Below are positions 4,228 to 62,143 of a DNA stretch of 64,000 nucleotides, one piece after another. This stretch comes from a virus. Below the pieces are notes generated by a model. That model made no database searches. It was given only the letters and a program-made list of their open reading frames with translations, and had not been told where the DNA came from. Position 1 is the stretch's first letter; every line of letters begins with the position of its first letter. Location: positions 121,198 to 185,197 of IMG/VR virus record IMGVR_UViG_3300029787_005452; one strand, written 5' to 3'. The position numbers were made by a program, and so were the translations under genes.

Positions 4228-6627
4228 ATGCGTACGATACAATCTCCAGGGGTAGAAATAAAAGAAGTCGATTTAAGTTTGAGACCTGTTTTTCCAACAG
4301 GTACAAACATTATGGTTGCTGGTTATTCTGATAAAGGTCCAACAGACGAAGTTATTCAAGTAACAAGTCAGAGTGAATTTGAACAGATTTATGGGGTTCC
4401 ATCTACTCCAGCAGAAAGATATTTTTACCATACGGTAAGACCATTATTTCAATCTCCAGCTAACATTTTAACGTATAGATTACCATATGGTTCAGAATCC
4501 GGTAACGGTTTTGGTAACGATTACGGGGTTTTAGCCTATCCAGTAAGTGCTATTAATATTGGTAATACAATAACAGAAGGAGATGACATTCCATATGGTG
4601 GGGGCCTTAGAACATTGAATCAATCACCATCAGGGGTAATGTATACACTTGGTAGACCAAAACATTTCTCCTTAACACAAAAGCAATATAATCAGATTTT
4701 ACAAAAAGATGGTTTTGATTTTAGTAATATCGGTACCAAAGCAGAAGAATTATCTTCATTTGAAACTTTAGGTAAAGCAGGTTTATTAGTCCTTAATAAA
4801 GGACAAACTACAATTGATGAAAAATTCCAAGGTTTTTATATCGGGGCAGTTGATAACACTAATCTTAACCCAGCAACAGACTTTGACGGTATTTTAAATA
4901 CAAAAACAATTGGGCAATCAGCTGAAGTTACGACAAATTACCTCTCGTTACCATCAACTAGATTAGACTTTACTCTATCGTCAATATCTGACAATAATAC
5001 AAGTACTTTTGGTCAAGAAGATGATAGTGTTTCAGAAATAATGGAAAATCTTAGTAAATTTGATATTGCTACTAATGATTTTGATGATACAGTTTCGTTA
5101 GGGTTATTTAAACTAAGACAATCACCATTCTCACCTGATACAATTAAATTAAATTATGTATTAAGTGAATCTTATGTTGGTTCATTTGATAGCTTTAGAC
5201 AAATTAATACATCTGATGGTGGTGCCCCGGTAAGCTTTTATTTGGATACAAAAGAAAATGATTCACCAAATGTGCAGATCTTAACTAATAAGTATGTATC
5301 ACATGCAGAAGATGGTGGTACTTGGTTAGATATTAATGGTAAACCTTCTAATAAAGTAAGATTTACATCAACCAAATTTGCAACAGATACAAGTAGTATT
5401 AAGAATATAGAGACGTTATCAGCTTCATACGGGGCAACAACATTAGCTCAGGCAGCAGCGTTATCAGCTTCGTTGTTTCAAACAACGAATCAGCTTGGTG
5501 CCGCAGATAGTTTATTCCCACTAGGTTCATATGCAAGTCAAGATTCTAAAACCAAGGATCTTGGTAGTATACCTGCAAAACTTGATAGATTATTCGATAC
5601 AGTCGAAAATATTGACTTATTTGATATCGACTTAACCTTAGATGGTGGTATTAGTACTATTAATGCAGTTTCTGAATTCTTAGAAAGAACAGGTCAAGGT
5701 AAGTATTTTGATGATACAGCACCGATTTCAGCTTTCGACGGTTTCTATACATCAGACATTGTTAATAATTTAACAACTGAAGCAAAAGCATTCAGAAGTG
5801 ATTGGAAAACAATCTTTGATAGGTTTGCAGAATTTGCAGAGAAACGTAGAAAAGATCATATGTTTGTAGCGGACTTACCGAAACCAATTTTTATACAAGG
5901 TAAGAGTTTCTTAACATTAGATGATCCTAATAAAAACTTCTCACTCAATGTGCTTAAGCCAATCCAAGCTCATACTAGTATTGTTAATACAAGTTATGCA
6001 GCAACTTATGCGCAGTGGGCACAAGTTTATGATTCATATTTAGATGATCAATGTTATGTACCGTTTTCAGGGTTTGCCGGTGCAGCAATGGCTAATACAG
6101 ATGCTAATTTCCAACCTTGGTTTGCACCAGCTGGATTTACTAGAGGGGTTGTAACTGGTGTTAACGATCTTGCATTATATCCTAAGCAGAAGCAAAGAGA
6201 TCAACTTTATAAGATATCGACTAACCCAGTAGCATTCTTCCCAGGAGAAGGATTTGTAATATTTGGTCAGAAAACGTTACTCAAGAAACCAAGTGCATTT
6301 GATAGAATTAATGTAAGACGTTTATTCTTAAATCTAGAAAAAGCTACTAGACAAACAGTTAAGTATTTTGTTTTTGAACCTAATACATTATTAACTCGTA
6401 CGAGAGTGTTAAATACATTAACACCTATTTTTGATAATGCTAAAAATACTGAAGGGGTTTACGATTTCTTAGTAGTTTGTGATGAAAGAAATAATACACC
6501 AACAGTAATTGATCAGAACGAGCTTATTGTTGATATATATCTCAAACCAGTAAGAGCTGCAGAATTTATTTTAGTTAATTTCTACGCAACCAAGACTGGA
6601 GCTGATTTCAATGAATTGGTTGGTTAA
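4228..6627 (+). CDS. gp18: Contractile tail sheath protein
   Basis: N-terminal SPGVEIKEVDLS, C-terminal PWFAPAGFTRG, FGQKTL, RINVRRLF, VDIYLKPVRAAEFILVNF; 799 aa with an internal insertion. Confidence 0.95.
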   Translation: MRTIQSPGVEIKEVDLSLRPVFPTGTNIMVAGYSDKGPTDEVIQVTSQSEFEQIYGVPSTPAERYFYHTVRPLFQSPANILTYRLPYGSESGNGFGNDYGVLAYPVSAINIGNTITEGDDIPYGGGLRTLNQSPSGVMYTLGRPKHFSLTQKQYNQILQKDGFDFSNIGTKAEELSSFETLGKAGLLVLNKGQTTIDEKFQGFYIGAVDNTNLNPATDFDGILNTKTIGQSAEVTTNYLSLPSTRLDFTLSSISDNNTSTFGQEDDSVSEIMENLSKFDIATNDFDDTVSLGLFKLRQSPFSPDTIKLNYVLSESYVGSFDSFRQINTSDGGAPVSFYLDTKENDSPNVQILTNKYVSHAEDGGTWLDINGKPSNKVRFTSTKFATDTSSIKNIETLSASYGATTLAQAAALSASLFQTTNQLGAADSLFPLGSYASQDSKTKDLGSIPAKLDRLFDTVENIDLFDIDLTLDGGISTINAVSEFLERTGQGKYFDDTAPISAFDGFYTSDIVNNLTTEAKAFRSDWKTIFDRFAEFAEKRRKDHMFVADLPKPIFIQGKSFLTLDDPNKNFSLNVLKPIQAHTSIVNTSYAATYAQWAQVYDSYLDDQCYVPFSGFAGAAMANTDANFQPWFAPAGFTRGVVTGVNDLALYPKQKQRDQLYKISTNPVAFFPGEGFVIFGQKTLLKKPSAFDRINVRRLFLNLEKATRQTVKYFVFEPNTLLTRTRVLNTLTPIFDNAKNTEGVYDFLVVCDERNNTPTVIDQNELIVDIYLKPVRAAEFILVNFYATKTGADFNELVG

Positions 6628-6652
6628 ACATTTATAGTTCATAAATATTATT

Positions 6653-7273
6653 ATGCCAGATACTAAATTAACAGATTTAGAGATAGTAACTCAACCTAAG
6701 GATGGAGACATATTATATATTGTCGATATTAATCAAGATGCGTCTAAACAAATAACCTATAATAACCTAGTAGGTACTAAAATAGATTCTTTAAGTGCAT
6801 CATTTGATACTCTTAATGTAAATTTGACTGCAGATATAGGTTCTAATACCACTAACATTACAACTGCTCAGAATGATATACTTGAAAATTCAACTGATAT
6901 AAATACACTTAGTTCTGATACTTTAACTTTATCAGCTGATGTAGCTAATCTTAGCGCTAATGTCTTTACAAAAGACCCAACTATTAGTGGTGTAGATAAT
7001 GGTAATACTTTTAGCTTTGGTACTGCAATGACAATTAATTCTGCTGCACCTGTAACACAGCATGTTACTACATTTAATACACAAATAGGAGATGTTGGCG
7101 TGGTAGGTTTAAGTGCTGAAGGAGGTTTAAGTGGCTTAGAAACCAATTTTTATCCAATGAGTGCTAATAAATGTGAACTAATTATAAGTACAAGAGTAAA
7201 CGATGATAGAACTATTACAATTCCAGCAAATACAGTATTTACATATTTTCTAGTTAGATCTGTTATTCAATAA
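6653..7273 (+). CDS. Virion accessory protein with fibre-type N-terminal module
   Basis: Own late promoter (6642-6647); N-terminus MPDTKLTDL...DILYIVD...SKQIT resembles four other fibre N-termini; short coiled-coil-like middle. Confidence 0.55.
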   Translation: MPDTKLTDLEIVTQPKDGDILYIVDINQDASKQITYNNLVGTKIDSLSASFDTLNVNLTADIGSNTTNITTAQNDILENSTDINTLSSDTLTLSADVANLSANVFTKDPTISGVDNGNTFSFGTAMTINSAAPVTQHVTTFNTQIGDVGVVGLSAEGGLSGLETNFYPMSANKCELIISTRVNDDRTITIPANTVFTYFLVRSVIQ

Positions 7274-7295
7274 ACTATAAAGATTAAATAATTAT

Positions 7296-7841
7296 ATGGC
7301 AGACACAACACAAACAATTCAAGGTTTTTATACACAAGCACAAGCTAAGGATTTTGCTAGAAATAATCTATTTAGAGTCTTAAATATCAATTTTGGAGGT
7401 GGTACTGAAGTATCATTTGATGAATCAGATTTAGTTTATGCTACAACAGCTACATTACCAGGTAAAACAATTGGTAATGTAGCAGTACCTTACATGGGTT
7501 TAAATTTTAATGTACCTGGTACAGTTACATATGATGGTAGCGACGCTTATACATTACAGTTTCGATCTGATGAATCTCATAACTTAAGAGAAAAATTCTT
7601 ACAAGTTCAAGCAGATACTTTTGACGATGAAGATAGTACAGGTAACTATTTTATGCCAACAGCTGATGCGGTTATTGATTTAGTTCTTTTAAATAAGGAA
7701 TTAGATAGAGTAGCGCAATATCAATTAGTAGGTTGTTCTATTCGGAATGTAGGTCCTCAATCATATGATTCTACTGGTGCAGGTGATGTCGTAACATTTG
7801 ATACAACAGTTGCTTACCATTACTTCAGAAAGACAGCATAA
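7296..7841 (+). CDS. gp19: Tail tube protein
   Basis: DFARNNLFRV, ATLPGKTIGNVAVPYMG, position after the sheath, late promoter 7285-7290, strong terminator after. Confidence 0.85.
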   Translation: MADTTQTIQGFYTQAQAKDFARNNLFRVLNINFGGGTEVSFDESDLVYATTATLPGKTIGNVAVPYMGLNFNVPGTVTYDGSDAYTLQFRSDESHNLREKFLQVQADTFDDEDSTGNYFMPTADAVIDLVLLNKELDRVAQYQLVGCSIRNVGPQSYDSTGAGDVVTFDTTVAYHYFRKTA

Positions 7842-7864
7842 CACATATAAAAACATCTAAATCT

Positions 7865-7890
7865 AAAAGCTCTCTTTGAGAGCTTTTTTT
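7865..7890 (+). terminator. Rho-independent terminator
   Basis: AAAAGCTCTC-TTT-GAGAGCTTTT followed by further Ts. Confidence 0.9.
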
Positions 7891-8758: not shown

Positions 8759-8759
8759 A

Positions 8760-10265: not shown

Positions 10266-10283
10266 GGTAATTAAATATTATTG

Positions 10284-12110
10284 ATGAACCCAAAAGTCGA
10301 CCACGCAAAAATATTATCCCTATTATCAGGGGTTTCAGATAAGTTAACGGATAGGGTCCTAGCTTTAGAGGATGCTGTTAGTAATACTATTGGAATGAGT
10401 ACTAATAGTATTAAAGCTCAACCTGAAAGTATAGTGGAAAAAGCTGAACCTGTTATTATAGCTGATATAGGTAAAGAAGCTAAAAAAGATTTTAGAGATG
10501 TTTTAACAACCCCGGAATCCAAAGAAGCAGCAGGAGGCGAAGGCGATGGTGGTGTAATGGCTTATGTCAAAAAACTAATAGGTCCTGCATTAATTATTCT
10601 TGGTAGTTTAGGAGCTTTAGTCGGTGGTCTATTTGCTGGAGGTGGTACTGGGATGCAAGACGCTCTCCAAGCTATAGGTAAAGGAGGATTAGCACTTGGG
10701 TTAAAATTAGCAGCAAAAACAGCAGGTACATTGTTAAAACCGGTACTAGGGAAATTACCATTAATAGGTGCATTAATTAGCTTTGGATTTGCTTATTCAG
10801 CATTTAAAAACGATGATTTTGTTGGGGGTTTATTTGACTTAGCCAGTGGTTTGGCTGGGTTACTTTACTTTGTACCAGGTGGTCAAGCATTTGCATTTCC
10901 TTTACAAATGGGTATTGACACTTTAAGTGCTATGTTAAGTCTTAGTACAACGCAAGAAGAAGGCGAAACACTGGGACAAGCTAAATTAAGGACATTAAAA
11001 GAGTTTATGGGTCCAATTTTCGGAATAATTAAAAAAGTACAACCTATGAGAATGTTTTTTGCAATAGGGGAAGGTATTCAAGAAATTTTTAAAGGTAATA
11101 TTGTTTCAGGTTTAACTAAAATAGCAACTTCAAATCCCATTTTTGATATTATAAATTTATTTAATAATGTATTTTTAGGTGGAGATGGCGGTTCAGTTGA
11201 TGATATGGCATCAGGTATGAGTGATAAAATTAGTTCTACTATCGGAGGAGCTAAAGAATTTATATCTACTTTGATCGAACCTATTAAAGATAAATACCCT
11301 ATGAAAAATTTTATAGGTATAGGTGAAGGTATAAGTAAAGTTTTTAAGGGTAATTTTAAAGAAGGTTTAATTCAAATTGGTGAAAACGGTCTGCCTGGAT
11401 TAAAAGCTATAGCTAATTTCTTTTTCGGTAGTACTGATGCTGAGACTGGAGAGAAAAAAGATGCTGGTTATAAAAAAGTTTTAGGTACTCTAGGTGGATT
11501 TTTTGGTTCTATTAAAGATAAAATGTTGATGAAACTTTTAAATTTATTTCCTGAGAAATTTGGTATTAGAAATAAAATTGCTGGTTTATTGGGTATAGAC
11601 TTAGGTCCAGTTGAAGACGAAAATATGGAAGCTGCTAAAACTGCCGAAACCGAAAGAGCTGAAAATGTGGCTGATATTGAAAGTAATTCAGAACCTGGAT
11701 CTGCAGATATAGCTGAAGATATGGCTGCAGAATCAGCAGAAATAGAAAAGAAAGTTAGAACAGGAAGAAGAGGAAGAAGAAGAGGAGGACCAGTAAGAAA
11801 AAATGAACCATATATGGTAGGAGAAGCCGGGCCTGAATTATTTGTACCTACTAATAATGGAAGTGTAGTTGATAATACTTCAACTGAAAATTTAAAAAAT
11901 ATTTTAGATAAAAATACATTTGTAGATGTAACAAATATGAATATGAAAATTAGCAATCTTCAATTTGCTGAACTAAAAAAGAATAATATGTTATTGCAAG
12001 CTATATTAGAAAAATCTAATAGTGGTAATACTGTTATTAATAATAAGAGTAGCAGTGTTGTTAATAATCAAAGTAGATCAGGTTTTAGAGATATGCAATT
12101 TGCTGTTTAA
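10284..12110 (+). CDS. Tape measure / baseplate hub protein (gp29-like)
   Basis: Gly/Ala-rich hydrophobic helices (LGKLPLIGALISFGFA) and GGPV...YMVGEAGPELFVP motif typical of tape-measure proteins; ATG 10284 lies 6 nt after TAAATA. Confidence 0.7.
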   Translation: MNPKVDHAKILSLLSGVSDKLTDRVLALEDAVSNTIGMSTNSIKAQPESIVEKAEPVIIADIGKEAKKDFRDVLTTPESKEAAGGEGDGGVMAYVKKLIGPALIILGSLGALVGGLFAGGGTGMQDALQAIGKGGLALGLKLAAKTAGTLLKPVLGKLPLIGALISFGFAYSAFKNDDFVGGLFDLASGLAGLLYFVPGGQAFAFPLQMGIDTLSAMLSLSTTQEEGETLGQAKLRTLKEFMGPIFGIIKKVQPMRMFFAIGEGIQEIFKGNIVSGLTKIATSNPIFDIINLFNNVFLGGDGGSVDDMASGMSDKISSTIGGAKEFISTLIEPIKDKYPMKNFIGIGEGISKVFKGNFKEGLIQIGENGLPGLKAIANFFFGSTDAETGEKKDAGYKKVLGTLGGFFGSIKDKMLMKLLNLFPEKFGIRNKIAGLLGIDLGPVEDENMEAAKTAETERAENVADIESNSEPGSADIAEDMAAESAEIEKKVRTGRRGRRRGGPVRKNEPYMVGEAGPELFVPTNNGSVVDNTSTENLKNILDKNTFVDVTNMNMKISNLQFAELKKNNMLLQAILEKSNSGNTVINNKSSSVVNNQSRSGFRDMQFAV

Positions 12111-19356: not shown

Positions 19357-21189
19357 ATGGCAAACGAAAACCTCACAGATTTCACTCTTTCTAAAAAAAG
19401 TTATGCTTCATTTGACGCATTAACGTTAAAACAGCTAATAAAAGATAGGTTAAACGAAGAAGGAGTATTTACCGATCAAATATTTGAAGGTAGTAATATA
19501 TCTTCAATTATTGATATAATTGCTTATTCATACCATACTTTACTATTTTATCTCAATCAATCATCAAATGAAACTTTATTTAATGAAGCTTCTATATATG
19601 AAAATATGAATAGAATAGTTAAACTTATAGATTACAAACCTATAGGTTATCAGACATCATTATTACCGTTTAAAGTTTCAGCAAATGCAAATATTGATAG
19701 AAATTTATACACATTAAAAAGATATTCATTTTTTATAGTTAATGGAACTTATTTTTCATTTAAAAATGATATAACTTTTAATAAAACTTTAACAATAGAT
19801 GAAGAATTAAAATCATTTTCAGAGGATAATTTACTTTTACAGGGTAGGTATTTTGAATACCCACCACAAAGGGCTATAGGGGAAGATTTTGAAATATTTA
19901 CCCTTCTTGTTAAAGATAATATTAATAATGAACCTATCAATATAGAAGATAGTTCAATAGACGTATATGTGTTTGATGTTAAAAATGGTCAATACACTTA
20001 TTATACTGAAACAAATAATCTATTTTTAGAAAACCCCACTTCACCGGTTTATGAAAAAAGATTAAATGAAAATGGTTTTTATGAAATTAAATTTGGTAAT
20101 GGGGTCTTTGGTAAAAAAGTTGCACCTGGTGATCAAGTTTATATATATTATCTAAAAAGTGACGGTGAAAATGGGGTAATAGAAGCTAATGCATTAAATG
20201 GTAAAACTATAAATTATTTTACATCAGTTCAATTTGAAAGCATTGGTAAAGATATATATAAAGATAAAAACTACGAATTTTTAACACCTGATAAATTACA
20301 AGACTTAGCATTTACCAATACGATTGAATCAACCTTTCCTAAAGAAAAAGAAAGCGTTGAAGAAATACAAGTAAATGCGCCGAAATTATTTACTGCGCAA
20401 GATAGACTTGTAACTAATGATGATTTCAATAGTTTTATTACAAAGAATTTTTCAAATATATTAGATTCATATAACGTTGTAAATAACAAAACATTCATAC
20501 AAAGATATATTCAATATTTTTATGATTTAGGTCTTGATACCCCTAATGAAGATCCTAGATTTTTATTTAACCAAGTTAAATTTTCATCATCAGCTGAATT
20601 AAACAATATATACCTTTTTGCTGTACCAAAAATTCGAAATGTAGATGAAAATAACACTTTATCTTTCTTAACGTTATCTCAAAAAAATTCTATTATAAAT
20701 TCTTTAGAAGATAAGAAATTAGTTACAATGGAAATAATTCCACAAGACCCTGTTTATATGGGGTTCAATTTAGGTCTAGAAAAAAACAATACTGAAAAAA
20801 TAAGTACAGATTTTATAGATGATACTTTCCTTGTACTAAAAAGAAAAATTTCAGAAAGAGTAAGTGAAGAAAGTCTAAAACAGCAAACAGATTTAATTTT
20901 TAAAAATTACTTTAAATCTTTAAAACTAGGTGACACAATAAGTTTAAATGAATTAAAAGTTTCAATACTAAGTTTAGATGGTATTGATCGTATTTTTACC
21001 CGAAGAATAAATCCATTAGATGGTACAACTTTAAATGAAACCCCAAATATATCATTAGTAGGGTTTAATGCTATATATTCTGATTTAGATATAAAAATTT
21101 ATTCAAATGATACAGAATTGGACTTTTTCAAATATCCATTCTTATTTAACGGTAACATACGAAATAATATAATAGTAGAAGATGCCTGA
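19357..21189 (+). CDS. gp6: Baseplate wedge protein
   Basis: FEGSNISSIIDIIAY, IKFGNGVFGK, ESVEEIQVNAP...QDRLVTNDDF. Confidence 0.9.
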   Translation: MANENLTDFTLSKKSYASFDALTLKQLIKDRLNEEGVFTDQIFEGSNISSIIDIIAYSYHTLLFYLNQSSNETLFNEASIYENMNRIVKLIDYKPIGYQTSLLPFKVSANANIDRNLYTLKRYSFFIVNGTYFSFKNDITFNKTLTIDEELKSFSEDNLLLQGRYFEYPPQRAIGEDFEIFTLLVKDNINNEPINIEDSSIDVYVFDVKNGQYTYYTETNNLFLENPTSPVYEKRLNENGFYEIKFGNGVFGKKVAPGDQVYIYYLKSDGENGVIEANALNGKTINYFTSVQFESIGKDIYKDKNYEFLTPDKLQDLAFTNTIESTFPKEKESVEEIQVNAPKLFTAQDRLVTNDDFNSFITKNFSNILDSYNVVNNKTFIQRYIQYFYDLGLDTPNEDPRFLFNQVKFSSSAELNNIYLFAVPKIRNVDENNTLSFLTLSQKNSIINSLEDKKLVTMEIIPQDPVYMGFNLGLEKNNTEKISTDFIDDTFLVLKRKISERVSEESLKQQTDLIFKNYFKSLKLGDTISLNELKVSILSLDGIDRIFTRRINPLDGTTLNETPNISLVGFNAIYSDLDIKIYSNDTELDFFKYPFLFNGNIRNNIIVEDA

Positions 21190-30080: not shown

Positions 30081-30489
30081 ATAGGTTATCATAATCATTC
30101 TGCGTGAATGATGTATCATATAAATCTTCAAAAAATGCAGAAGCTCCTTCGTAATACGTTATTACTTCTTCAGCTGATAAACTATTTTTAAATAAATTAT
30201 ATCTTTTACTTATTATATTAAATCTTGTACCTAAATTACTTTCAATAAGAGGTATATAGGTATTTTTCAATTCAGATCCTGATAAACTTAATATATTATT
30301 ATTAGCGTCTTTAAATTCTATTTCATCATTAATATTTGATATCATTTTTAATCTTACTAATGAAGCATCATCAACATCAAAAGGAATACTATCAATCGTT
30401 AAGGGTGAATTTTCAAAAATACCTTTTAATTCACGCAAGTTTTCATTATCTAAATAAATTGTTTCTATTAATTTAATATCTATATTCAT
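30070..30489 (-). CDS. Fibre-associated protein (possible assembly chaperone)
   Basis: Third gene of the DUF1983 fibre cluster; no firm motif. Confidence 0.45.
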   Translation of the reverse strand: MNIDIKLIETIYLDNENLRELKGIFENSPLTIDSIPFDVDDASLVRLKMISNINDEIEFKDANNNILSLSGSELKNTYIPLIESNLGTRFNIISKRYNLFKNSLSAEEVITYYEGASAFFEDLYDTSFTQNDYDNLYEL

Positions 30490-46702: not shown

Positions 46703-49700
46703 TTATAATATTGTTTGCAACCAAGCTGCTACTCTACCACTAGTCATAGCAGTATCACCATCTTTATTAGTTCTAAAGTTAATTATATCATTTTCATCAA
46801 ATGTAATATTTGAAGATGTAACATCAGTTACTTGAGATTTTTTAGCATCAGTATCAGCTAACCCACTAGTTATTATACCTTTTGCGCCAGTTGCAACACC
46901 ATTTTTGTATACCTCTATCTCAATGTCATCAGCCATTGTACCACTGTTTATTTCTGCATTAACAGATATTTTTAATAGCTTAGATTTAAATGCTATTGGT
47001 ATACCATGTGCTGCTGGTGTTAAATCTCCATTACCGAAGGACCATTCGTGGCTACCGTCAGTTAAATCTTCTGCTTCCTCAGCCCATATAGAATATATTG
47101 AACCGTATACTGCTGATAAAGATAAAATCGAACCAGTAGCTGATAAATTACCTTGCACACTAACATTTTCAGAATATAAAGTATTAGGTTGACTACCTGA
47201 TAAAGCATTACCAACAATAAATGATTTATCAGCTGCTACTGATAGTTCATTATGACTGCCTCCTAATATACCACTATCATTTGAATTTATTATATTCTTC
47301 ATACCACCGCCTATAAACGTTGCAGAACCTGATGCGGTATTTGAAAATCCACCGCCTATAAACGATGCAGCACTTAGAGAGCAATTAGCTTGACCTCCAC
47401 CTATAAATGAATTAATAGATTTATTACAAATTTTATTATAAGTACCCCCTGCAATTGCTGATCTGGTTGCACCTGTAAAAATTTGATTTTCATTTCCTCC
47501 TGCAATAACACTTGTATTTCCTCTTGCTTTATTTAGACGACCACCACCTACGGTAGAATACTCACCAATAGCTAAACCATAATATCCACCTGCAACAGTA
47601 GTCGCGCATGCACATGCATGATTTTGATAGCCTCCTCCAACAGTTGAATATTCCGCTGCAGTCCGGTTTGAATTGCCTCCTCCAATAGTATTTTCATCAC
47701 CTGCAGCACAGTTAAAATTACCCCCACCAATAGTTGAACGATTACCGGAGGAACAATTTTTAAACCCCCCTCCAATAGTAGCATAAGCTCCGGTAATTAA
47801 ATTTTTATAACCACCGGCTATAGTTGTATTAGTTCCTTTTGCTTCATTAATAAAACCTCCCCCAACAAATGAACGACCACCTGAAGCTTTAGAGCTAAAA
47901 CCACCAACTAATGTTGAATATTCACCTGAAGTTAAGTTTTTAGTACCACCTGCTATAGTATTTACTTTACCAGAAGCTTCGTTAAGTGTACCACCACCTA
48001 TAAATGATGCTGAACCTGAAGCAGTATTACTAAATCCTCCACCGATAACATCACCTGAACTTAAAGTACTATTTAAATTACCTCCTCCGATAAAAGCACA
48101 AGTTGATTTATTTAAAACTTCATTATTTTTACCACCCGCAATTGATGAAAAATTACTATTACGGAAAACAAAATTTTGATTACCACTACCTACAAAAGAA
48201 TAATCGCCGAGAGCTTTGTTTAGTAAACCACCGACTATAACTGATTTTTCTGAGAGTGCTAGATTATTTACACCACTACCTACGAATGAATAACCTCCAC
48301 ATGCACAATTCTGATAACCTCCTGCAATACTACCTCCTGTACCGTTTACGCAATGCCTAGTACCACCACCTATAAATGTATAATCTTGAGATGACTTATT
48401 TAACGTACCTCCAGCAATTGTAGCATACATACCATTAACACAATTAGTGTGACCTCCACCCACGGTGTTGTATTGACCTAAATTGCAATTAGCAAATCCA
48501 CCGGCAATGGTTCCAAATTCATCATTAACATGATTCCTACCTCCTCCACCTATAGTTGAACACGCTCCTTTAGCACAATGACACATACCTCCCCCAACAA
48601 ATGATCTTATACCTTCAGCTTTAGAACTAAAGCCTCCTACTACTGTTGAATAATTACCTGAAGCATCATTTTTAGAACCTCCACCTATAATTGATGCTTT
48701 ACCTGAAGCAGTATTAAATAAACCACCGCCAATAACTGATCCTGAACCTGATGTAGTATTACTAAATCCTCCTGCAATAACCTCTAATGCACTTAAAGAT
48801 ATATTACTTTTACCTCCAAGTACTGAAGAACATCCACCTTGGCTACAAACTTTATTAATTGAACCTAAAACTACACTGTACGTACCATGTGCTTGACCAC
48901 CAGTACCAACAAATGAATTACCCCCTATTGCACAAGCAGCGAAACCAGAACCTACAAAACTTTGATTTCCTATTGCTTTATTAAGTCCCCCGGAGCCAAC
49001 AAATGAATAATTACCTACTGCACAGTTAGTGGTACCTCCAGCAACAACACTGTTATTTCCAGTAGCTTTGTTCGTATTACCACCAGCAACAGTAGACGAG
49101 TTACCAGTAGCAAAATTAGAAGTTCCTCCACCTACAGCAGCAGTACTACAAGATGTATTATTAGCACCTCCAGCTACTACTGAGTTTGCAGCAGCAGCAA
49201 CATTATTTTGACCACCACCAATAAATGAATTTTGACCATTTGCTCTATTATTAAAACCACCTGCAACAGTCGAAGCTAAAGTTCCTGCAGCACTATTATT
49301 GCAACCACCTCCCACAACACCAAAATTTTCAAGAGTAGTATTACTTAAACCACCAGTTACAGTAGATGCTAAACCTGAGGATTGGTTAAATACACCTGCT
49401 CCAATGAATGCTCCTGAACCTGATGAAGTATTGGTAAGACCTCCTACAACAGCTCCATGTGCACTTAAAGATATGTTATTTTGACCTGTACCTATAAATG
49501 AATAGCTACCAGGAGCTTCGATTGTATTATTTTTACCACCAAGTATACCTGAATTAGTAGCTTTAGCACAATTTTTAAATTGACTGGTACTATGACCTCC
49601 ACCGACGACAGTTGAAAAAGCTCCTGTAGCATAATTATAACCTCCTCCAACGACAATTGAATTGCCACCAGAAGCTTTATTGACAAAGCCTCCAACTACT

Positions 49701-51589
49701 ACAGAACAAGTACCAACAGCACAACTATTAAAACCACCTCCTACAGTTGAACATGCGCCGGAAGCCTTATTTACATAACCACCAACGACAACTGAATGAT
49801 TACCAACAGCACAACTATTAAAACCACCTCCTATAAATGAACATACGCCGCAAGCTTTACTCAGGACACCGCCGACTGCAACTGAAAAATTACCTATTGA
49901 TTGTACCTGGTAACCGCCTCCGACAAAGCTACAATTACCACTAGCTGTATTACAATTCCCTCCTCCTATAGCTGAATTATTAGCAGTTGCTTTATTATTA
50001 ACACCTCCTCCTATTCTAGATTGATCACCACTTGCGCAATTGCCAATACCTCCTCCAACTGAAGCCCAATTAGCAACTGCTGAAACTCCTTCTCCAAAAG
50101 CAGTACTCGCAACTCCAGTTGATTTAGATAAAGAACCTCCAGCTATTGAATAATTGCCTGTTGCGCAATTATTGTTACCACCTACGATGCTTGCACAATT
50201 ACCTGATGCTGTATTGCATAAACCACCAGCTACGGTAGATTTTTTACCAGAAGCGATATTTTGAGAACCTCCTCCTATAAACGATGCTGAGCCTGATGCT
50301 GTGTTACTATAACCCCCTCCAACAACTGAATGTATACCTGAGGCAGAACTACCTTTATTATAACCTCCACCACCTCCAACAGTTGAAAAAGCTCCTGTAG
50401 CATAATTACTTTGACCTCCACCAACAAATGAAGAACCACCAATTGCTCGATTATTATTACCAGCACCAACAAATGAAACATTCCCTGAAGCTCTATTACC
50501 ACTACCTCCTCCTACAGTAGCACCGGGTACGGTGGCGCAATTATAGTATCCTCCTCCTACTACTGAGTATGAACCGGTAGCACAATTATTTAAACCTCCT
50601 CCTATTACTGAGTCAGTACTGGTAATTTTATTTAAACAACCACCACCTATAAAAGAACCACCCGCAGCACTATTACCTACACCTCCAATAATTTTATTTG
50701 CTGATAAACTTACTGCTGATAAACCATTTACAACAATTGGTATTCCTCCAGGTCCAACTAACCCAGTGGTAAATATATCTCCAGTTGCAGATATATTACC
50801 TACTACAGTAAGCTTTTCATTAGCAGATAAAGTACCTATTCCTATACGACCCATATCATCAATTACAACATCATCTCCATTTACGTCTATAAAGTGTGCT
50901 ATTGGTTGGCTTCCATTTTGCTGTACATATAAAGCAGGTCCTGTACCATCATTAGTAACACTTAAAGAAGAAGTAGTTGTTGTAACTGTGTTAAAGATTA
51001 CTTCATCCCCTAATACTGATAAGTTTTGAGTAACGAGAAAATCAGTAACTTCAATTGTAGGTGAAGAAAATTTACTCATTACCGATAAATTATCTACATA
51101 AGTAAAATCTGGAATTGCAGTTTGTACACCTGAACCTCCTATTATAACTGTACCACTATGGCTTATTGTATTAGAGCAACCACCAATCATAACACTATTA
51201 CAATTATCAGGATCACAATTATCAATTAAATTGCTATTACCACCAATAATAACTGAATTTTCAGCACAATTAAAATTATTAACACCTCCAGCAACTAGTG
51301 AATTACTTTTTTCCACTCTATTCAAATTGCCACCTACAATAGTACCATACGTACCAGATGCATAATTAGACGACCCTCCAATGACAGAAGCTTGGGTACC
51401 CGGGTTTTGATTGGAATGTGGGTTGGTAAGTATTGTACTAGCTGATAAATCCGCCATGTTTAGTGTACCTAACACTGCAGTAGATAGTGAAGTTTTTCTT
51501 GTTGTTCCGTTCTCAACTATCGGTATTACTTGAGAACCGTTTTGAGATAATGAACAAGTAAGGTTAGAAATTTTAATACCAGTGGACAT
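46703..51589 (-). CDS. Giant fibre with YadA-head-like 14-aa repeats
   Basis: Dozens of S(F/T/V)(I/V)GGGxxNxAxG repeats; GRIGIGT...KLTVVGNISA neck; about 40 Cys; distinct C-terminal globular domain. Confidence 0.8.
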   Translation of the reverse strand: MSTGIKISNLTCSLSQNGSQVIPIVENGTTRKTSLSTAVLGTLNMADLSASTILTNPHSNQNPGTQASVIGGSSNYASGTYGTIVGGNLNRVEKSNSLVAGGVNNFNCAENSVIIGGNSNLIDNCDPDNCNSVMIGGCSNTISHSGTVIIGGSGVQTAIPDFTYVDNLSVMSKFSSPTIEVTDFLVTQNLSVLGDEVIFNTVTTTTSSLSVTNDGTGPALYVQQNGSQPIAHFIDVNGDDVVIDDMGRIGIGTLSANEKLTVVGNISATGDIFTTGLVGPGGIPIVVNGLSAVSLSANKIIGGVGNSAAGGSFIGGGCLNKITSTDSVIGGGLNNCATGSYSVVGGGYYNCATVPGATVGGGSGNRASGNVSFVGAGNNNRAIGGSSFVGGGQSNYATGAFSTVGGGGGYNKGSSASGIHSVVGGGYSNTASGSASFIGGGSQNIASGKKSTVAGGLCNTASGNCASIVGGNNNCATGNYSIAGGSLSKSTGVASTAFGEGVSAVANWASVGGGIGNCASGDQSRIGGGVNNKATANNSAIGGGNCNTASGNCSFVGGGYQVQSIGNFSVAVGGVLSKACGVCSFIGGGFNSCAVGNHSVVVGGYVNKASGACSTVGGGFNSCAVGTCSVVVGGFVNKASGGNSIVVGGGYNYATGAFSTVVGGGHSTSQFKNCAKATNSGILGGKNNTIEAPGSYSFIGTGQNNISLSAHGAVVGGLTNTSSGSGAFIGAGVFNQSSGLASTVTGGLSNTTLENFGVVGGGCNNSAAGTLASTVAGGFNNRANGQNSFIGGGQNNVAAAANSVVAGGANNTSCSTAAVGGGTSNFATGNSSTVAGGNTNKATGNNSVVAGGTTNCAVGNYSFVGSGGLNKAIGNQSFVGSGFAACAIGGNSFVGTGGQAHGTYSVVLGSINKVCSQGGCSSVLGGKSNISLSALEVIAGGFSNTTSGSGSVIGGGLFNTASGKASIIGGGSKNDASGNYSTVVGGFSSKAEGIRSFVGGGMCHCAKGACSTIGGGGRNHVNDEFGTIAGGFANCNLGQYNTVGGGHTNCVNGMYATIAGGTLNKSSQDYTFIGGGTRHCVNGTGGSIAGGYQNCACGGYSFVGSGVNNLALSEKSVIVGGLLNKALGDYSFVGSGNQNFVFRNSNFSSIAGGKNNEVLNKSTCAFIGGGNLNSTLSSGDVIGGGFSNTASGSASFIGGGTLNEASGKVNTIAGGTKNLTSGEYSTLVGGFSSKASGGRSFVGGGFINEAKGTNTTIAGGYKNLITGAYATIGGGFKNCSSGNRSTIGGGNFNCAAGDENTIGGGNSNRTAAEYSTVGGGYQNHACACATTVAGGYYGLAIGEYSTVGGGRLNKARGNTSVIAGGNENQIFTGATRSAIAGGTYNKICNKSINSFIGGGQANCSLSAASFIGGGFSNTASGSATFIGGGMKNIINSNDSGILGGSHNELSVAADKSFIVGNALSGSQPNTLYSENVSVQGNLSATGSILSLSAVYGSIYSIWAEEAEDLTDGSHEWSFGNGDLTPAAHGIPIAFKSKLLKISVNAEINSGTMADDIEIEVYKNGVATGAKGIITSGLADTDAKKSQVTDVTSSNITFDENDIINFRTNKDGDTAMTSGRVAAWLQTIL

Positions 51590-52470: not shown

Positions 52471-52476
52471 TATAAT
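52461..52476 (+). promoter_or_regulatory. GGAAC-class promoter
   Basis: GGAACA-gtga-TATAAT-N6-ATG(52483), overlapping the upstream TGA. Confidence 0.7.
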
Positions 52477-52482
52477 AATAGC

Positions 52483-53388: not shown

Positions 53389-53424
53389 GTTCATGCTGAC
53401 CTAGGCAAGTCTATAAACTGCCTA
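53387..53424. terminator. Two small hairpins between convergent genes
   Basis: AGGTTCA/TGACCT and TAGGCA-A-GT/ACTGCCTA; no U tract. Confidence 0.35.
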
Positions 53425-55353
53425 ATCTAATTGAACGGCTGAAAGTTGATAGCCTTCTCTACCTAAAGCTTCCATTCCATCTATTATACGATCATGGAAA
53501 CCTTTTGTACTATAAGCAGGACCTAAGCCTTGGCTTTCATATAATTTCTTAAACCCAAAGTGACTTGGATCGAGATACTGAGCAGAGAACGATTGAGAAG
53601 GAGACAAGAAACTAGTACTAAGGAAAGTAATTGATAAAAGTAATTCATTATTATGTACAATAAATGATGGACTGCTACTATCACCATTGGCTAGCTTCAT
53701 CTGCGGAAAGCCTAATTTTTTATTTTCAAATATTGAAGAAACACCCATAAGAGATGTATAACCTACTGCAACACTACCACTACCTGACAATGGAGCTCCG
53801 TTGGATGGGAATATTGTCGAACCTAATGCAGCAAATTCATCCCCGTCACTGTATGAAAAACTGCCAGTAAACTCAGGATTTCTTAATTTACCTAAACTGT
53901 AGTTACCTGCTTGAGTAAGGGTTGGAAATCTTTTAGGTCTTTGAACTTCATTATCAAATAAGGGTAATTTATAAGTTTTAACTTTACCTCCGGCGTCCGG
54001 TCGACCGGCTTCAGCAGTTATATCATTACTTAACTTAATTAAGTTAGCATCATTTCCTAAATTAAGTTCTCCCACCACTGTAGCAGAAACAATTTTATTT
54101 TCAGTAGTTAAAAATCTAGCAGTAGAACCAGGGTTAGTAGCACCTCCAAAATGCGTATTAGAAAGACCAAACTTACCATTTATTAAAGTTATATTATTAT
54201 CACCTCTTAAAGATATACCTGTAAGGTCATATATATCTCTATATGGATATAAATACCATGCTGTATTATAATTAGCAGAGTTTGTATTTCTATCATTAAC
54301 GTACCTATATTTGGTTCTTATTGCTTCATTAGTTGCGTTATCTAATGCATCACTATAATGCAAATTAGCATCGGGTCTAAAAAATTCTTCTTGATAAAAT
54401 AAACTCTGTGACGGAAATCTTAATGATCCTCTATACTCAGGAGTATCTTCTAACATAACTCCTGATAATGTTTGATATTCATCTAAAGGATTAGAAAGAG
54501 ATGATACTGTAGTCCATACTGTATGTATGCTATTAGCTCTTGATTCTTCATAAGGAGCTGCACTTATATCAATAACATAACTTTTTGTACTAGTATAAAG
54601 ACCTTCTATATCAGTTCTATTTGTAGAGAAAGTTATTGTATAAGTATCGTTTGCTGATAAATCATTGATAGGAACAGTCATTCGCCTGCTTGTTTGTGAT
54701 AAGTTTGCTTGCTCTAAAGTATCAAAAGATTTAAAATTTGTTTCAATATTAAAGTTATCACCAACATTAAAATTTACAAAATCTCCTAATAATCTTCCAT
54801 TCTCATGTATTGCAGATATTTCAATAGTAAAAGAAGTCGTATCGAAACTTCCGGTAAATCCAGTCGTATCTGTAGATAAATTTACCTGTAAATTACTAAA
54901 GTCGTAAGAAGTTAATACAACTGATTGGGTCTCTATATCACTATTATAATTAAAAAACTTTCTATCAAAAGTTAACTCTCCCACATCATTAATAGTATCG
55001 TTAAAATTAATACTTTTTTGTATAAACGTGTTATTAATAAAATATAAACTATCAAAAAGATAATCTGTAGATGTAATAAATCTATATTTACTATAAAATT
55101 CTAATAAAGGGTAATCTATAAATTTTCTTGCGTTAATAAAATCTAATTGATTCCCATTTGCCCCTAATTCATCTCCAGTTGCAACATAATTATTATCTAT
55201 ACTCAAAAAATTAAAAGTAAAGTCAGGTACAGTTAAAGATGGAGTTCCGATTTTAAGTGGAATTGAGCTACCTAATAAAATTTTATTTCTTTGTTGAGAG
55301 TTATATAAATTCCTAGCCCTCTTTAAGTCGTTAAATGTTGGAGGGTTACTCAT
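53422..55353 (-). CDS. Virion-type protein with C-terminal trypsin-like (S1) serine protease domain
   Basis: TLINGKFGLSNTHF (His), NDANLIKL (Asp) and GDSSSP (Ser) in the correct order. Confidence 0.65.
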   Translation of the reverse strand: MSNPPTFNDLKRARNLYNSQQRNKILLGSSIPLKIGTPSLTVPDFTFNFLSIDNNYVATGDELGANGNQLDFINARKFIDYPLLEFYSKYRFITSTDYLFDSLYFINNTFIQKSINFNDTINDVGELTFDRKFFNYNSDIETQSVVLTSYDFSNLQVNLSTDTTGFTGSFDTTSFTIEISAIHENGRLLGDFVNFNVGDNFNIETNFKSFDTLEQANLSQTSRRMTVPINDLSANDTYTITFSTNRTDIEGLYTSTKSYVIDISAAPYEESRANSIHTVWTTVSSLSNPLDEYQTLSGVMLEDTPEYRGSLRFPSQSLFYQEEFFRPDANLHYSDALDNATNEAIRTKYRYVNDRNTNSANYNTAWYLYPYRDIYDLTGISLRGDNNITLINGKFGLSNTHFGGATNPGSTARFLTTENKIVSATVVGELNLGNDANLIKLSNDITAEAGRPDAGGKVKTYKLPLFDNEVQRPKRFPTLTQAGNYSLGKLRNPEFTGSFSYSDGDEFAALGSTIFPSNGAPLSGSGSVAVGYTSLMGVSSIFENKKLGFPQMKLANGDSSSPSFIVHNNELLLSITFLSTSFLSPSQSFSAQYLDPSHFGFKKLYESQGLGPAYSTKGFHDRIIDGMEALGREGYQLSAVQLD

Positions 55354-55354
55354 T

Positions 55355-56326
55355 TTATGAAAGACCTGTTATAATACCATCTGTAATAACCATTGATTTA
55401 TCACCTGCGTTACTTGATATTGTAACTGTTCCTGTAAAACCATTACCTGCATGTATGGAGCATGTTGCGCTTAATTTATTAACGAATGTTGTACAATCAC
55501 CACACCCTTTTATACCAGTTCCTATTATAAAAGAATTATTACCAGATAAACCATTATTTAATCCTCCTAAAATACCACCGTTACTTCCGGATAAAATAGA
55601 ATTACTACTTCCTCCAACGATAATATTTCTTTCTCCTGAAGTTATATTATTACCTAGACCTGTACCTATAAAACTACAACTTGAGCTTAAAACTTGATTA
55701 AACGACCCGGCACCAATAAATGAATCACCTGACCGTCTTATGATATTAATCATCCCTGAGCCAATAACTGTTCCAGTATTATCACAACTAAAATTTGTAC
55801 CAGCTAAAATAATATTGCAACTAGATGCAATATTAGATTGTAAAATGGAAGCACTATCCCCTCCTAATATTATATTATTTTTATTACCTGGAGTGTTTAT
55901 AGTATTAGAAAGACCCCCCAATAAAGATCCACAACCAGCACATATTTTATTATTTTGCCCATTTAAAATTGTAGAAAATTTATTGTTATTATTACAACCT
56001 GCTATTAAATGACATCTTCCGCCTATAATTGTACCATAACCAATACTTAAATTATTATTATCTAAGCCGTTTAATACGGTATTAAATATACTACTAGTAG
56101 CGGAATTATTACAGCCTTGTACAACAACACCAAAGCTACTTAAAGCTTTATTGTTACACCCCGCTAAAACTATAGCTTGGGTCCCATTAGTTTCTGAATT
56201 TTCTCCTCCTCCTGATATTGCTGAAACAGGAAGACGTTTAGTCGTACCACATTGATTAACAGGAATAACTTCTGAACCTGATAATTTATCAGCTTCAGTT
56301 AAATTTAATAATGAAACGATTGCCAT
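55355..56326 (-). CDS. Short Cys-rich fibre with YadA-like repeats
   Basis: IxGGxxN repeats, shared N-terminal module, 13 Cys in 323 aa, late promoter 56332-56337. Confidence 0.75.
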   Translation of the reverse strand: MAIVSLLNLTEADKLSGSEVIPVNQCGTTKRLPVSAISGGGENSETNGTQAIVLAGCNNKALSSFGVVVQGCNNSATSSIFNTVLNGLDNNNLSIGYGTIIGGRCHLIAGCNNNNKFSTILNGQNNKICAGCGSLLGGLSNTINTPGNKNNIILGGDSASILQSNIASSCNIILAGTNFSCDNTGTVIGSGMINIIRRSGDSFIGAGSFNQVLSSSCSFIGTGLGNNITSGERNIIVGGSSNSILSGSNGGILGGLNNGLSGNNSFIIGTGIKGCGDCTTFVNKLSATCSIHAGNGFTGTVTISSNAGDKSMVITDGIITGLS

Positions 56327-60268: not shown

Positions 60269-61180
60269 ATGTTCGAACTATTTTCAGAAGGCTATAGAGC
60301 TTTAATTAGAAACAATACAACCTCTCTTTCATCTGGTTTAAGCGCTGTTTTCTTAACTGATACAGCATCTAGCCCTACTAGTGAAAGTAATGCAAATATG
60401 ACTTATGTTAGAGCTAATACTGCTTCTAATTTACAGTTTACCTTTACTGATTTAGGATATGAAGATTCTGTATCAACTAGCGGAAGTACGAGTTATATAT
60501 ATTTAACATCTTCCGGATTAACAGTACCAGCTGGTACAGGCATTACTGCTAATACATTTGCTAATGATGTGGATCAATACGGTCATATAATTAGCGAGGT
60601 TGATGACTTAGTATATGGTTATTTCAGAGCTTCAGATACTTCTAAAACGTTTATGAATGCAGGTTTAACATTTACTTGGACTACCAACCGGATAGGTCAA
60701 TTAAGTATTGGTGATGAAAATTTATCAGGCTATGATGCATTTTATAAGACCGGTGTTGAATTAGATCTTTTAAATAAGGCTCGTATTGCGTTAGTAAGAA
60801 ACGTAGCAGGTTCAAATTCAAGTACTTTTCATGATACTATTGATGAAATGGTAAATCTAGGTCAAATAGGATCAGGTACAGTACCAGGTGCAGGTGATAA
60901 TAGTAGAGCTACAATAACAATGCTTACTTCCGGACACCAATTATCAGGTCTTAACTTTGGTTCTGGCACTAGTAAGTTTTTAACTGCTGGTGAAATGGTT
61001 ATACCAGCTGCTGGAACGCATACAAATGTAGTAATAATGCTTTATTCAGAATTAGGAGCTTTAAATGATGGTGGAGCTAATGCAATTCCATTGGCAATGT
61101 TCACTGATGATTTTAGCTTTACATTCTCAGAAAATGCGTTTGTGAAACCAACCACTAGTGGTATTATTGGATTTAGTTAA
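60269..61180 (+). CDS. Hypothetical virion protein
   Basis: TAAATA-N5-ATG; Ser/Thr/Gly-rich, beta-strand character. Confidence 0.55.
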   Translation: MFELFSEGYRALIRNNTTSLSSGLSAVFLTDTASSPTSESNANMTYVRANTASNLQFTFTDLGYEDSVSTSGSTSYIYLTSSGLTVPAGTGITANTFANDVDQYGHIISEVDDLVYGYFRASDTSKTFMNAGLTFTWTTNRIGQLSIGDENLSGYDAFYKTGVELDLLNKARIALVRNVAGSNSSTFHDTIDEMVNLGQIGSGTVPGAGDNSRATITMLTSGHQLSGLNFGSGTSKFLTAGEMVIPAAGTHTNVVIMLYSELGALNDGGANAIPLAMFTDDFSFTFSENAFVKPTTSGIIGFS

Positions 61181-61497: not shown

Positions 61498-61498
61498 T
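61471..61498 (+). promoter_or_regulatory. Sigma70-type promoter
   Basis: TTGAAA-N16-TATAAT-N6-ATG(61505). Confidence 0.65.
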
Positions 61499-61504
61499 AT
61501 AATT

Positions 61505-61702
61505 ATGAAAGAGTATAAAGAAGGAGAATATATTACATATAATGTAAGATACCCAGGTAGTGAACCTATGGTTGCTTCTGGTAACGTCGTAAAGATGGTT
61601 AATGAAAATGGTAAAAAGCAATACTTAGTTGCTGAAGGTAACGGTGGTCAGAATATGACTTATGTGAATCCGGAAGATATTGTAACTTTAATAAACGGGT
61701 AG
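61505..61702 (+). CDS. Small SH3/KOW-like beta protein, hypothetical
   Basis: YKEGEYITY...GNVVKM...YLV...VNPEDI pattern. Confidence 0.5.
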   Translation: MKEYKEGEYITYNVRYPGSEPMVASGNVVKMVNENGKKQYLVAEGNGGQNMTYVNPEDIVTLING

Positions 61703-61704
61703 TT

Positions 61705-61875
61705 ATGAGTAAAAGAGCAAAACCTGGAGTAGATTTAAGAGCTCCTAACCCTACCCATACAAAACGAATGGGGCGTTCTTATGGACCATTAGTATATAAC
61801 GAGCATGTCGGTCATAAGGTAACACAAAAGATCGACAAAGCTATTAAAAATAATAGAAAGGATAAAGTTAATTAA
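61705..61875 (+). CDS. 56-aa basic hypothetical protein
   Basis: Below the cutoff: MSKRAKPGVDLRAPNP...NRKDKVN; starts 2 nt after the previous stop. Confidence 0.5.
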   Translation: MSKRAKPGVDLRAPNPTHTKRMGRSYGPLVYNEHVGHKVTQKIDKAIKNNRKDKVN

Positions 61876-62126
61876 TTAGCTGCAATATAATTTGATACTG
61901 CAGTTTGAAGACTAGCATTAGTCCATTCAGCAGGATTATCATAATTATCACCGCTAAGTTCATCTAAATCAATTTGACCAATATTGTCTATAAAAACTGA
62001 TACTCTCTTTTCACCAGGTATATCCACTATACGGCGAATTTCAATATCACCAGCAGCAAGTGAAACTGTTTGGGCTGGTTGAGTTGTTACTGTTTTTGAC
62101 GATGATAAAGTTACTTTTAAGCTCAT
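61872..62126 (-). CDS. Small late (virion?) protein
   Basis: TAAATA (62132-62137)-N5-ATG. Confidence 0.6.
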   Translation of the reverse strand: MSLKVTLSSSKTVTTQPAQTVSLAAGDIEIRRIVDIPGEKRVSVFIDNIGQIDLDELSGDNYDNPAEWTNASLQTAVSNYIAAN

Positions 62127-62143
62127 AGAAATATTTAATCAAA

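Follow-up and report, generated by a model that had tools for sequence, protein, structure and literature searches.

Marine T4-like phages carry many glycosyltransferase genes without known targets, and the locus described here raises the question of whether such a phage glycosylates its own particle, and if so on which residues and with which enzyme. The locus is a 64,000-nucleotide stretch (the window), positions 121,198 to 185,197 of IMG/VR virus record IMGVR_UViG_3300029787_005452, in which the tripeptide Leu-Ser-(Ala/Gly), written LS[AG] below, recurs in the outer tail, baseplate and fibre proteins. The original prediction had read the tripeptide as an acceptor site for phage-encoded glycosylation and had named the sugar enzymes of the window as its makers. 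We confirmed that the over-representation of LS[AG] is a real mark of these protein classes, three- to six-fold above chance in the phage and its clade, with no such excess in the enzymes and inner virion proteins. As to its cause, the reading we prefer, with somewhat less than even confidence, is that LS[AG] is a short linear motif under selection, most likely a tag for the modification of serine, with glycosylation taking most of that share.

The window is the end portion of the 185,197-bp record, which has 29.5% G+C (coordinates marked "genome" refer to the record, all others to the window). Because the window encodes terminase, sheath, tube, gp6-like and gp25-like proteins, we place this uncultured marine virus among the T4-like phages. 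Its closest cultured kin are Pelagibacter phage HTVC008M and the cyanomyoviruses, at a protein identity of only ~35-44%, and IMG/VR holds a large clade of relatives, complete genomes included, with sheath identities between 49% and 96%. With its many sugar genes, the variable structural region fits the description given for pelagimyophages (Zaragoza-Solas et al., 2020, PMC7029224). From the clade we compared three complete genomes of 209-230 kb (G001, G002 and G003) and a close fragment with structural genes only (G004). The outgroups were HTVC008M, cyanophage S-T4 and an E. coli T4-like phage, and three more phages, HK542, Maravista and KpLz-2_45, were examined beside them.

LS[AG] in the outer virion proteins

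The two structural arms of the 185-kb genome together hold 88 LS[AG] sites, where 2000 within-protein shuffles average 26.3 and never exceed 44; the 90-kb replication/metabolism block has 14 sites for 14.0 expected. The window holds 59 where per-protein composition predicts 17.6. When the open reading frame (ORF) set of the whole genome is used, the 51 non-enzyme proteins of the window region hold 61 (15.5 expected) and the 11 recognisable window enzymes none (1.6 expected). Zero copies were found in the terminase, clamp loader, dUTPase, GuaC-like, RadA-like and DUF932 proteins, in gp6 and both gp25-like proteins, and in the window's GT2, GT9-like, GT90 and sulfotransferase genes. When every tripeptide of the proteome is ranked, LSA (53 sites, 16.8 expected, p = 1.6e-12) comes top and LSG fifth. 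Nor is the excess the work of one or two repetitive giants, since LSA still stands at 2.6-fold without its two largest contributors and eight proteins are significant individually. The per-protein counts of the original prediction held on recount (for example five in the 6653 protein, two in the sheath insertion and 10 in the giant fibre), the enzymes, gp6 and gp25 proteins that it had judged by eye to lack the motif do lack it, and the excess persists once composition is corrected for.

The motif-bearing proteins of the window are the following.

4228..6627, plus strand: tail sheath (PHROG phrog_23), 2 LSA against 0.74 expected
6653..7273, plus strand: small whisker-like fibre, 206 residues, 5 LS[AG] against 0.18 expected; AlphaFold2 (AF2) model with a predicted local distance difference test (pLDDT) score of 83
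10281..12110, plus strand: tape-measure-like tail protein (weak match to PHROG phrog_1538), 2 copies
21182..22174, plus strand: unnamed protein after gp6, conserved across the clade, 2 copies
27053..28825, plus strand: unnamed baseplate-module protein, conserved across the clade, 3 copies
30070..30489, minus strand: small unnamed protein, 2 copies
30934..32943, minus strand: immunoglobulin (Ig)-like/PKD-like tail protein (PHROG phrog_2589), 2 copies
32986..36492, plus strand: mostly beta outer protein of 1168 residues with a beta-propeller-like part, 7 copies; AF2 pLDDT 73
36494..38386, plus strand: unnamed structural protein, conserved across the clade, 2 copies
39983..43495, minus strand: unnamed structural protein, 1170 residues, 7 copies against 1.53 expected
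46703..51589, minus strand: giant Gly-rich fibre, 1628 residues, 10 copies
53422..55353, minus strand: unnamed protein, 643 residues, 4 copies, no Pfam or PHROG match
55355..56326, minus strand: Gly-rich fibre, 323 residues, 4 copies
60269..61180, plus strand: unnamed Ser/Thr-rich protein, 303 residues, 3 copies

In the sheath, both LSA copies (residues 397 and 412) lie within an insertion between the conserved N- and C-terminal parts. Two of the three copies in the 27053 protein are at its C-terminus, and the G003 orthologue also ends in two LSG. Several copies in the giant fibre share a recurring Gly-rich context, GG..N.[SC]-LSA.....GG; its matches to UspA1 and ice-binding repeats are weak and below threshold. 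Of the PKD-like proteins, the Ig-like one at 30934 has two copies and the other (22980) none. No ORF could be confirmed as the protease listed in the original prediction, and the likeliest candidate, probably the protein that was meant, is 53422-55353 with its four copies. The C-terminus of this last protein, EGYQ-LSA-VQLD, resembles the EGYE-LSA-VEMV of a protein at genome 28836-31025, and from this likeness the two may be paralogues or have a C-terminal module in common.

Residue order, residue identity and codon use

The excess depends on the order of the three residues. Five permutations of L, S and A score 0.8-1.4-fold and the permutations of L, S and G 0.8-1.3-fold, a result that rules out both local enrichment in these residues and the composition of Ser/Gly/Ala-rich domains as explanations. 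It also depends on the first residue. Proteins of at least 150 residues were classed by their Ser, Thr, Gly and Asn (S/T/G/N) content, with at least 30% defining the rich class, and in the rich proteins of this genome Ile, Val and Phe before S-[AG] score 1.06-1.35-fold, only Leu being enriched at the first position. Thr is a weaker substitute for Ser at the middle position. In the flanks, Ser is mildly preferred at -1 and +3 and hydrophobic residues are depleted at -1, and neither a longer pattern nor periodicity was found there. An N-x-S sequon concealed in N-L-S was rejected (8 of 102 sites only), as was the Cys frame used by protein O-glucosyltransferases (POGLUT): none of the 102 sites has C-x-S-x-[P/A]-C around it, and any Cys within -3 to +6 occurs at only eight.

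An over-represented nucleotide word in the DNA or RNA of late genes could also translate as LS[AG], and the commonest encoding, TTATCAG (24 of 59 sites), does occur 109 times genome-wide against a Markov expectation of 67. We regard this origin as highly improbable. The motif is encoded by 28 different 9-mers with both TCN and AGY serine codons, the latter near their background rate; the antisense copies of the word fit the common NCT-GAT-AAN codon triplet; and the excess occurs in genes of both strands and is confined to one protein class. Because codon use is so diverse, the signal lies at the peptide level; a composition artefact is excluded, and a nucleotide one all but excluded.

Spread and turnover in the clade

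As the motif was first picked by eye, replication outside this genome matters; the excess recurs in G001-G004 and across 67 orthologues of the 32986 protein, which meets the objection of a post-hoc choice. In the S/T/G/N-rich class, LS[AG] stands at 2.5-7.8-fold in G001, G002, G003 and G004; in the poor class it stands at 0.9-1.3-fold in G001-G003 and at 2.6-fold in G004, of which there are structural genes only. Set beside its variants in rich proteins, L-S-[AG] scores 3.2-4.7-fold across all four clade genomes, with I/V/F-S-[AG] at 0.8-2.4-fold, L-T-[AG] at 0.85-2.1-fold and L-N-[AG] at 0.6-1.0-fold. The content classes of HTVC008M, S-T4 and the E. coli phage, the last with too few rich proteins to weigh, give 0-2.1-fold, and L-S-[AG] in the rich proteins of HTVC008M and S-T4 scores 1.4-1.5-fold. 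HK542, Maravista and KpLz-2_45 range from 0.8 to 1.9-fold in the rich class. A generic trait of S/T/G/N-rich phage proteins is rejected by the values of 0.8-1.9-fold in HTVC008M, S-T4 and these three phages. Overall, the six non-clade phages show a generic background of 1.2-1.7-fold, and since the clade genomes stand well above it, the excess is a property of the clade.

The 32986 family gives the fullest view of how individual sites behave. Its 67 distinct orthologues (21-92% identity) hold 315 LS[AG] against 51 expected, or 6.3-fold, with VS[AG] at 2.1-fold, FS[AG] at 0.9-fold, LT[AG] at 2.9-fold, LS[ST] at 2.5-fold, LN[AG] and LD[AG] at 0.7-0.95-fold and permutations at 0.4-0.95-fold. In a 55-sequence alignment, 291 LS[AG] sites fall in 75 columns, or 54 column clusters; for IS[AG], whose expectation is similar, the figures are 54 sites and 29 clusters. 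A few columns are well conserved, notably the CSW-LSG at residue 452 with LS[AG] in 35 of the 55 orthologues, and many others are singletons. Site density reaches 10.6 per 1000 residues in lineage-specific insertions, compared with 3.4-4.3 in the shared core. In pairwise comparisons between the window and distant orthologues in G001-G003, motif positions are conserved no better than those of average tripeptides (10-22% kept, against 9-14%). The density of LS[AG] is maintained while its positions change, and new surface material arrives motif-rich.

Structural settings of the motif

The AF2 model of the 6653 protein, built with 25 homologues, has a small N-terminal attachment domain of beta structure, a single helix (residues 36-103) and a C-terminal beta sandwich; no significant fold match was found for it, the C-terminal knob included. 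The helix is 68 residues long, is predicted at pLDDT 91-96 and shows L..(7)..L and V..(7)..V registers. Three of the five LS[AG] copies lie in it at 7-residue spacing, with Leu at d, Ser at e, the small residue at f and Val at the next a, and in the 25-sequence alignment these helix sites read L-S-[T/A/S/G], the third residue being most often Thr or Ser. The fourth copy closes a strand, and in the fifth, the G-LSG of residues 158-161, S160 is invariant and G158, L159 and G161 are conserved at 90% or above. By helix, heptad spacing, attachment domain and terminal knob, the modelled protein would qualify as a fibritin-like coiled-coil whisker. Its gene is a fast-evolving one amid very conserved ones, with 70% protein identity to G004 where the flanking sheath and tube have 96% and 94%. 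Another coiled-coil whisker is probably encoded at 220182-221120 of G003, to judge from the sequence of this 312-residue protein, which has 7 LS[AG] against an expectation of 0.24, in repeats of 17-18 residues with the pattern Y-LS[AG]-.ID.NFNLQTATDN.

The 32986 protein gives propeller-type Foldseek matches with low template modelling (TM) scores. Of the seven copies on its AF2 model, four are in loops, three of them of low confidence, and a fifth is in a short inter-strand turn; in the remaining two, Leu is the last or second-last residue of a strand and S-G follows. When the distinct columns of the family are placed on the model, 54% are in loops, 17.5% at strand C-ends, 14% in helices and 14% in strand interiors, which hold 31% of all Leu. 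In the insertion domains of some orthologues LSG is repeated as DY[ST]-LSG-N.I.F, which reads like a hairpin turn. Taken together, the models suggest that LS[AG] serves in four or more unrelated structural settings, always in the pattern of a buried hydrophobic, an exposed polar and a small residue. The original prediction had the serines exposed. Predicted secondary structure puts the sites mostly in loops, insertions and strand ends and seldom inside strands, and the serines at the e positions of the 6653 helix would be only partly exposed in a trimer.

The excess could instead be a purely structural habit of the lineage: in its fibrous and beta-rich outer proteins Leu-Ser-small would be favoured at strand ends, loop starts and coiled-coil d-e-f positions, inherited and maintained by ordinary purifying selection, with its serine unread and unmodified. 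We consider this nearly as likely as a modification tag. Three of the five 6653 copies sit in a confident helix with heptad spacing and accept T/A/S/G as third residue, GLSG159 and CSW-LSG452 are well conserved, as structural residues are, and several fibre copies share Gly-rich contexts. The hairpin-like repeats of the 32986-family insertion domains agree with such a habit, as do the 5.4 sequences per column cluster for LS[AG] against 1.9 for IS[AG], and unrelated phages have their own favoured tripeptides besides the generic excess given above. On the other side, no single context explains the sites, which are spread over loops, strand ends, helices and insertions and whose flanks show neither a longer pattern nor periodicity. 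In a strand or turn motif Ile and Val would be expected beside Leu, yet only Leu is enriched. Comparable S/T/G/N-rich proteins in HTVC008M and S-T4 have no excess, density is kept though positions change, and the motif is densest in newly acquired insertions.

A proposed modification tag and its candidate readers

The strict Leu, the outgroups without excess, the mixed contexts, the turnover of positions and the enrichment in insertions are the reasons for which we suspect a reader acting in trans. In the mechanism we propose, L-[S>T]-[A/G] would be a short linear motif that selection keeps dense where the outer virion proteins of this pelagimyophage-like clade are exposed. It would be placed wherever the fold tolerates a buried hydrophobic, an exposed polar and a small residue, such as coiled-coil d-e-f positions, a strand-end Leu followed by a Ser-Gly turn, Gly-rich fibre contexts, and surface loops and insertions. 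A phage-encoded enzyme would read the tripeptide and modify the serine, with O-glycosylation as the leading candidate. We infer the existence of this reader, its nature as a glycosyltransferase and its identity from the comparisons set out here. A glycosyltransferase is the first suspect because of the phage's gene content, which includes many sugar genes, and the partial acceptance of Thr in the 32986 family would be as for Ser/Thr O-glycosylation.

A reader of another kind would leave the same signature of selection. It could be a different serine modification (phosphorylation, acylation, or dehydration or crosslinking by an oxygenase) or an assembly chaperone that grips Leu-Ser-small, and one possible enzyme lies within the structural block:

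29454-30131: 2OG-Fe(II) oxygenase

Among the relatives and outgroups, this oxygenase occurs only in G004 and HTVC008M, and no known enzyme or chaperone family of such specificity was identified. We hold such a reader to be unlikely.

The original prediction assigned the modification to four sugar enzymes of the window, of which GT2, GT90 and the sulfotransferase are borne out by Pfam and the GT9-like transferase is a lead from the ESM Atlas.

26222..27031, plus strand: GT2 glycosyltransferase inside the baseplate module (Pfam PF00535), 0 motif copies
44800..45720, plus strand: possible GT9-like transferase, a lead only (ESM Atlas neighbouring cluster, 26% of members with PF01075); no Pfam or PDB match
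45701..46528, plus strand: sulfotransferase (Pfam PF00685)
62930..63946, plus strand: GT90 transferase (Pfam PF05686; PDB 9w47, POGLUT2, E = 1.4e-9)

That these enzymes together build a glycan, perhaps sulfated, on the LS[AG] serines has in its favour the genes themselves, the place of the GT2 within the baseplate block and the resemblance of the GT90 to protein O-glucosyltransferases, since it aligns to POGLUT1, POGLUT2 and Rumi over ~100 residues. Their distribution makes it quite improbable. The GT2 is present in just 3 of 50 records holding LS[AG]-rich orthologues of the 32986 protein, on which ground it was rejected as the modifying enzyme; G001 has it, yet the adjoining 32986 orthologue there has a single LS[AG] copy. 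The GT90 has no match in the five relatives searched (G001-G005), and the Cys frame of its POGLUT relatives is absent from the motif sites. Orthologues of the sulfotransferase were found only in G004 and G002, and G001, which has no GT9-like gene, shows a 3.5-fold excess in its S/T/G/N-rich proteins; the sulfotransferase and GT9-like genes are both patchy, and the excess is present in every clade genome. The glycosylation reading of the original prediction is thus supported in the enrichment and in the location of the sites, mostly loops, strand ends and insertions, and fails in its choice of enzymes, which do not track the motif.

The enzyme would more probably be conserved in the clade than be one of these variable genes, and by distribution the best candidates are the following.

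genome 51,675-52,445 and 52,442-53,209, minus strand: tandem GT2-like pair (PHROG phrog_2456)
genome 113,129-114,001: RmlD-like sugar-nucleotide enzyme, core to the clade

The pair and the RmlD-like enzyme are among 45 genes common to the clade and absent from the three outgroups. Each of the eight clade records with a completeness of 50% or more has the second transferase of the pair (52,442-53,209), which is absent from HTVC008M, S-T4 and the E. coli phage. Homologues of this second transferase in HK542, Maravista and the Klebsiella jumbo phage KpLz-2_45 form the N-terminal part of a 445-485-residue transferase, which in HK542 and KpLz-2_45 is directly followed by a gene of ~196 residues annotated as a glucosyltransferase and in Maravista by a second transferase two genes on; from its sequence relatives, the pair looks like a two-gene cassette common to very different phages. 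LS[AG] could accordingly be read in its most specific form as the acceptor sequon of a clade-conserved phage O-glycosyltransferase system, with the GT2 pair and a deoxysugar enzyme sugar-coating the outer tail, baseplate and fibres in a widespread group of pelagimyophage-like marine phages, a proposal that we put forward tentatively and judge rather less likely to be right than wrong.

Several observations weigh against it. Part of the signal has plain structural causes, namely the 6653 heptads, the Gly-rich fibre contexts and the CSW-LSG of the 32986 family. The three coiled-coil copies in 6653 have an ordinary structural explanation on the model, and a glycan at a coiled-coil e position would crowd the trimer, in which e positions are predicted to be only partly exposed. 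HTVC008M has no LS[AG] excess, yet it has excesses of its own in TLT (63 against 25), ITL and TAD, and L-D-[AG] stands at 2.7-fold in its S/T/G/N-rich proteins. Since other marine myophages show them, lineage-specific tripeptide excesses of similar p-value are not rare, and they may be common in marine myophage fibres. The enzyme link is a single contrast of clade with outgroups, one common to ~45 other clade-core genes. The GT2 pair sits among kinase- and nuclease-like genes, and because of these neighbours and of the clade's 7-deazaguanine, DNA is a possible substrate for it; the genes QueC and QueF for 7-deazaguanine are present in this genome, and the clade also makes the base. No canonical TATAAATA late promoter was found before the pair, the sole copy facing the neighbouring plus-strand gene. 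The cultured phages HK542, Maravista and KpLz-2_45 carry 30%-identical transferases with no LS[AG] excess. In pairwise BLASTP, Che8 gp108-110 give E values of 0.12, 5.1 and 0.011 with the clade-core GT2, from short GT-A-like stretches only, so that it was rejected as a homologue of the Che8 virion glycosyltransferases, being unrelated beyond the GT-A core; Maravista gene 99 matches the clade-core GT2 at 30% identity and has no counterpart among the three Che8 transferases compared. Finally, the published view of pelagimyophage glycosyltransferases is that they modify the host O-chain (Zaragoza-Solas et al., 2020, PMC7029224).

A residue-specific tag confined to the outer virion proteins of a whole clade yields a hypothesis that is concrete and inexpensive to test. 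If tails and fibres do carry glycans, this bears on host recognition, on the stability of particles in seawater and on virome proteomics. If the serines are unmodified, a 3-6-fold, lineage-specific tripeptide excess in phage fibres can arise without a reader, and sequons should not be called by statistics alone.

Other features of the genome

The late-promoter-like TATAAATA box near the GT2 pair, at genome 53,220-53,232, stands 5 bases before the ATG of a 104-residue plus-strand gene with 2 LS[AG]. Gene blocks at genome 42-51 kb and 81-88 kb are without orthologues in G001-G003. Within genome 42,159-51,700 there are ~12 consecutive minus-strand genes (207-327 residues) with nearly no orthologues in these complete relatives, a genome-specific block. 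In the tail module, the adjoining proteins at 8721-9515 and 9531-10265 are Leu/Ser-rich with just 2.3% and 1.2% Ala+Gly, a composition unusual for structural proteins, and one of them has a weak baseplate-hub match. Among the relatives, G002 encodes two giant proteins, in each of which an A-D-W-D-S type repeat occurs at least 35 times (59 ADW, 3.0 expected).

Comparison with known systems

T4 fibritin (wac) offers a structural likeness to the 6653 protein, which combines an N-terminal attachment domain and a C-terminal knob with a long helix where Leu occupies d and small polar residues occupy e and f. In contrast, the two have no sequence or fold match, the modelled knob of 6653 is a beta sandwich where fibritin has the foldon, and the 6653 gene sits between the sheath and tube genes, unlike that of T4 fibritin.

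For the proposed modification, a precedent is found in mycobacteriophages. In Che8 and Rita, virions are glycosylated by phage-encoded glycosyltransferases, with glycans on the major capsid protein, according to the account of Freeman et al. (2023) given in PMC11256854. If LS[AG] is a glycosylation tag, the phage described here would likewise be a tailed phage that decorates virion proteins in the host cytoplasm with its own enzymes. The targets differ: in Che8 the one named in that account is the major capsid protein (PMC11256854), whereas here they would be the sheath insertion, baseplate periphery, whiskers and fibres.

Two further systems touch the enzymes of the window. POGLUT1 and Rumi are GT90 enzymes, to which, with POGLUT2, the window GT90 aligns, and their acceptor serine has a small residue two positions on; unlike their substrates, the 102 sites have no Cys frame and no EGF repeats, and the GT90 occurs in no relative searched. 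We know of no short sequon defined for mycobacteriophage virion glycosylation. The autotransporter heptosyltransferases (TibC/AAH, GT9-like, acting on AIDA-I and TibA) recognise a structural strand-loop-strand element, not a fixed tripeptide. They resemble the proposed system in cytoplasmic O-modification of many serines at turns of repetitive beta surface proteins. In the window, the GT9-like assignment is weak, and G001 has the motif with no copy of the gene.

The general O-glycosylation of Bacteroidota, D-[S/T]-[A/I/L/V/M/T], is comparable in its acceptor, a tripeptide in which Ser or Thr is followed by a small or aliphatic residue, and in its many protein targets. It acts in the periplasm on exported proteins and needs Asp before the acceptor, whereas here Leu precedes and the proteins assemble in the cytoplasm. 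Chlorovirus PBCV-1 glycosylates its capsid with virus-encoded machinery at a non-canonical acceptor motif of its own, as is putatively the case here, although it is a eukaryotic algal virus and the glycans on its capsid protein are N-linked. If the proposal holds, LS[AG] would be, to our knowledge, the first defined O-glycosylation sequon in a tailed phage.

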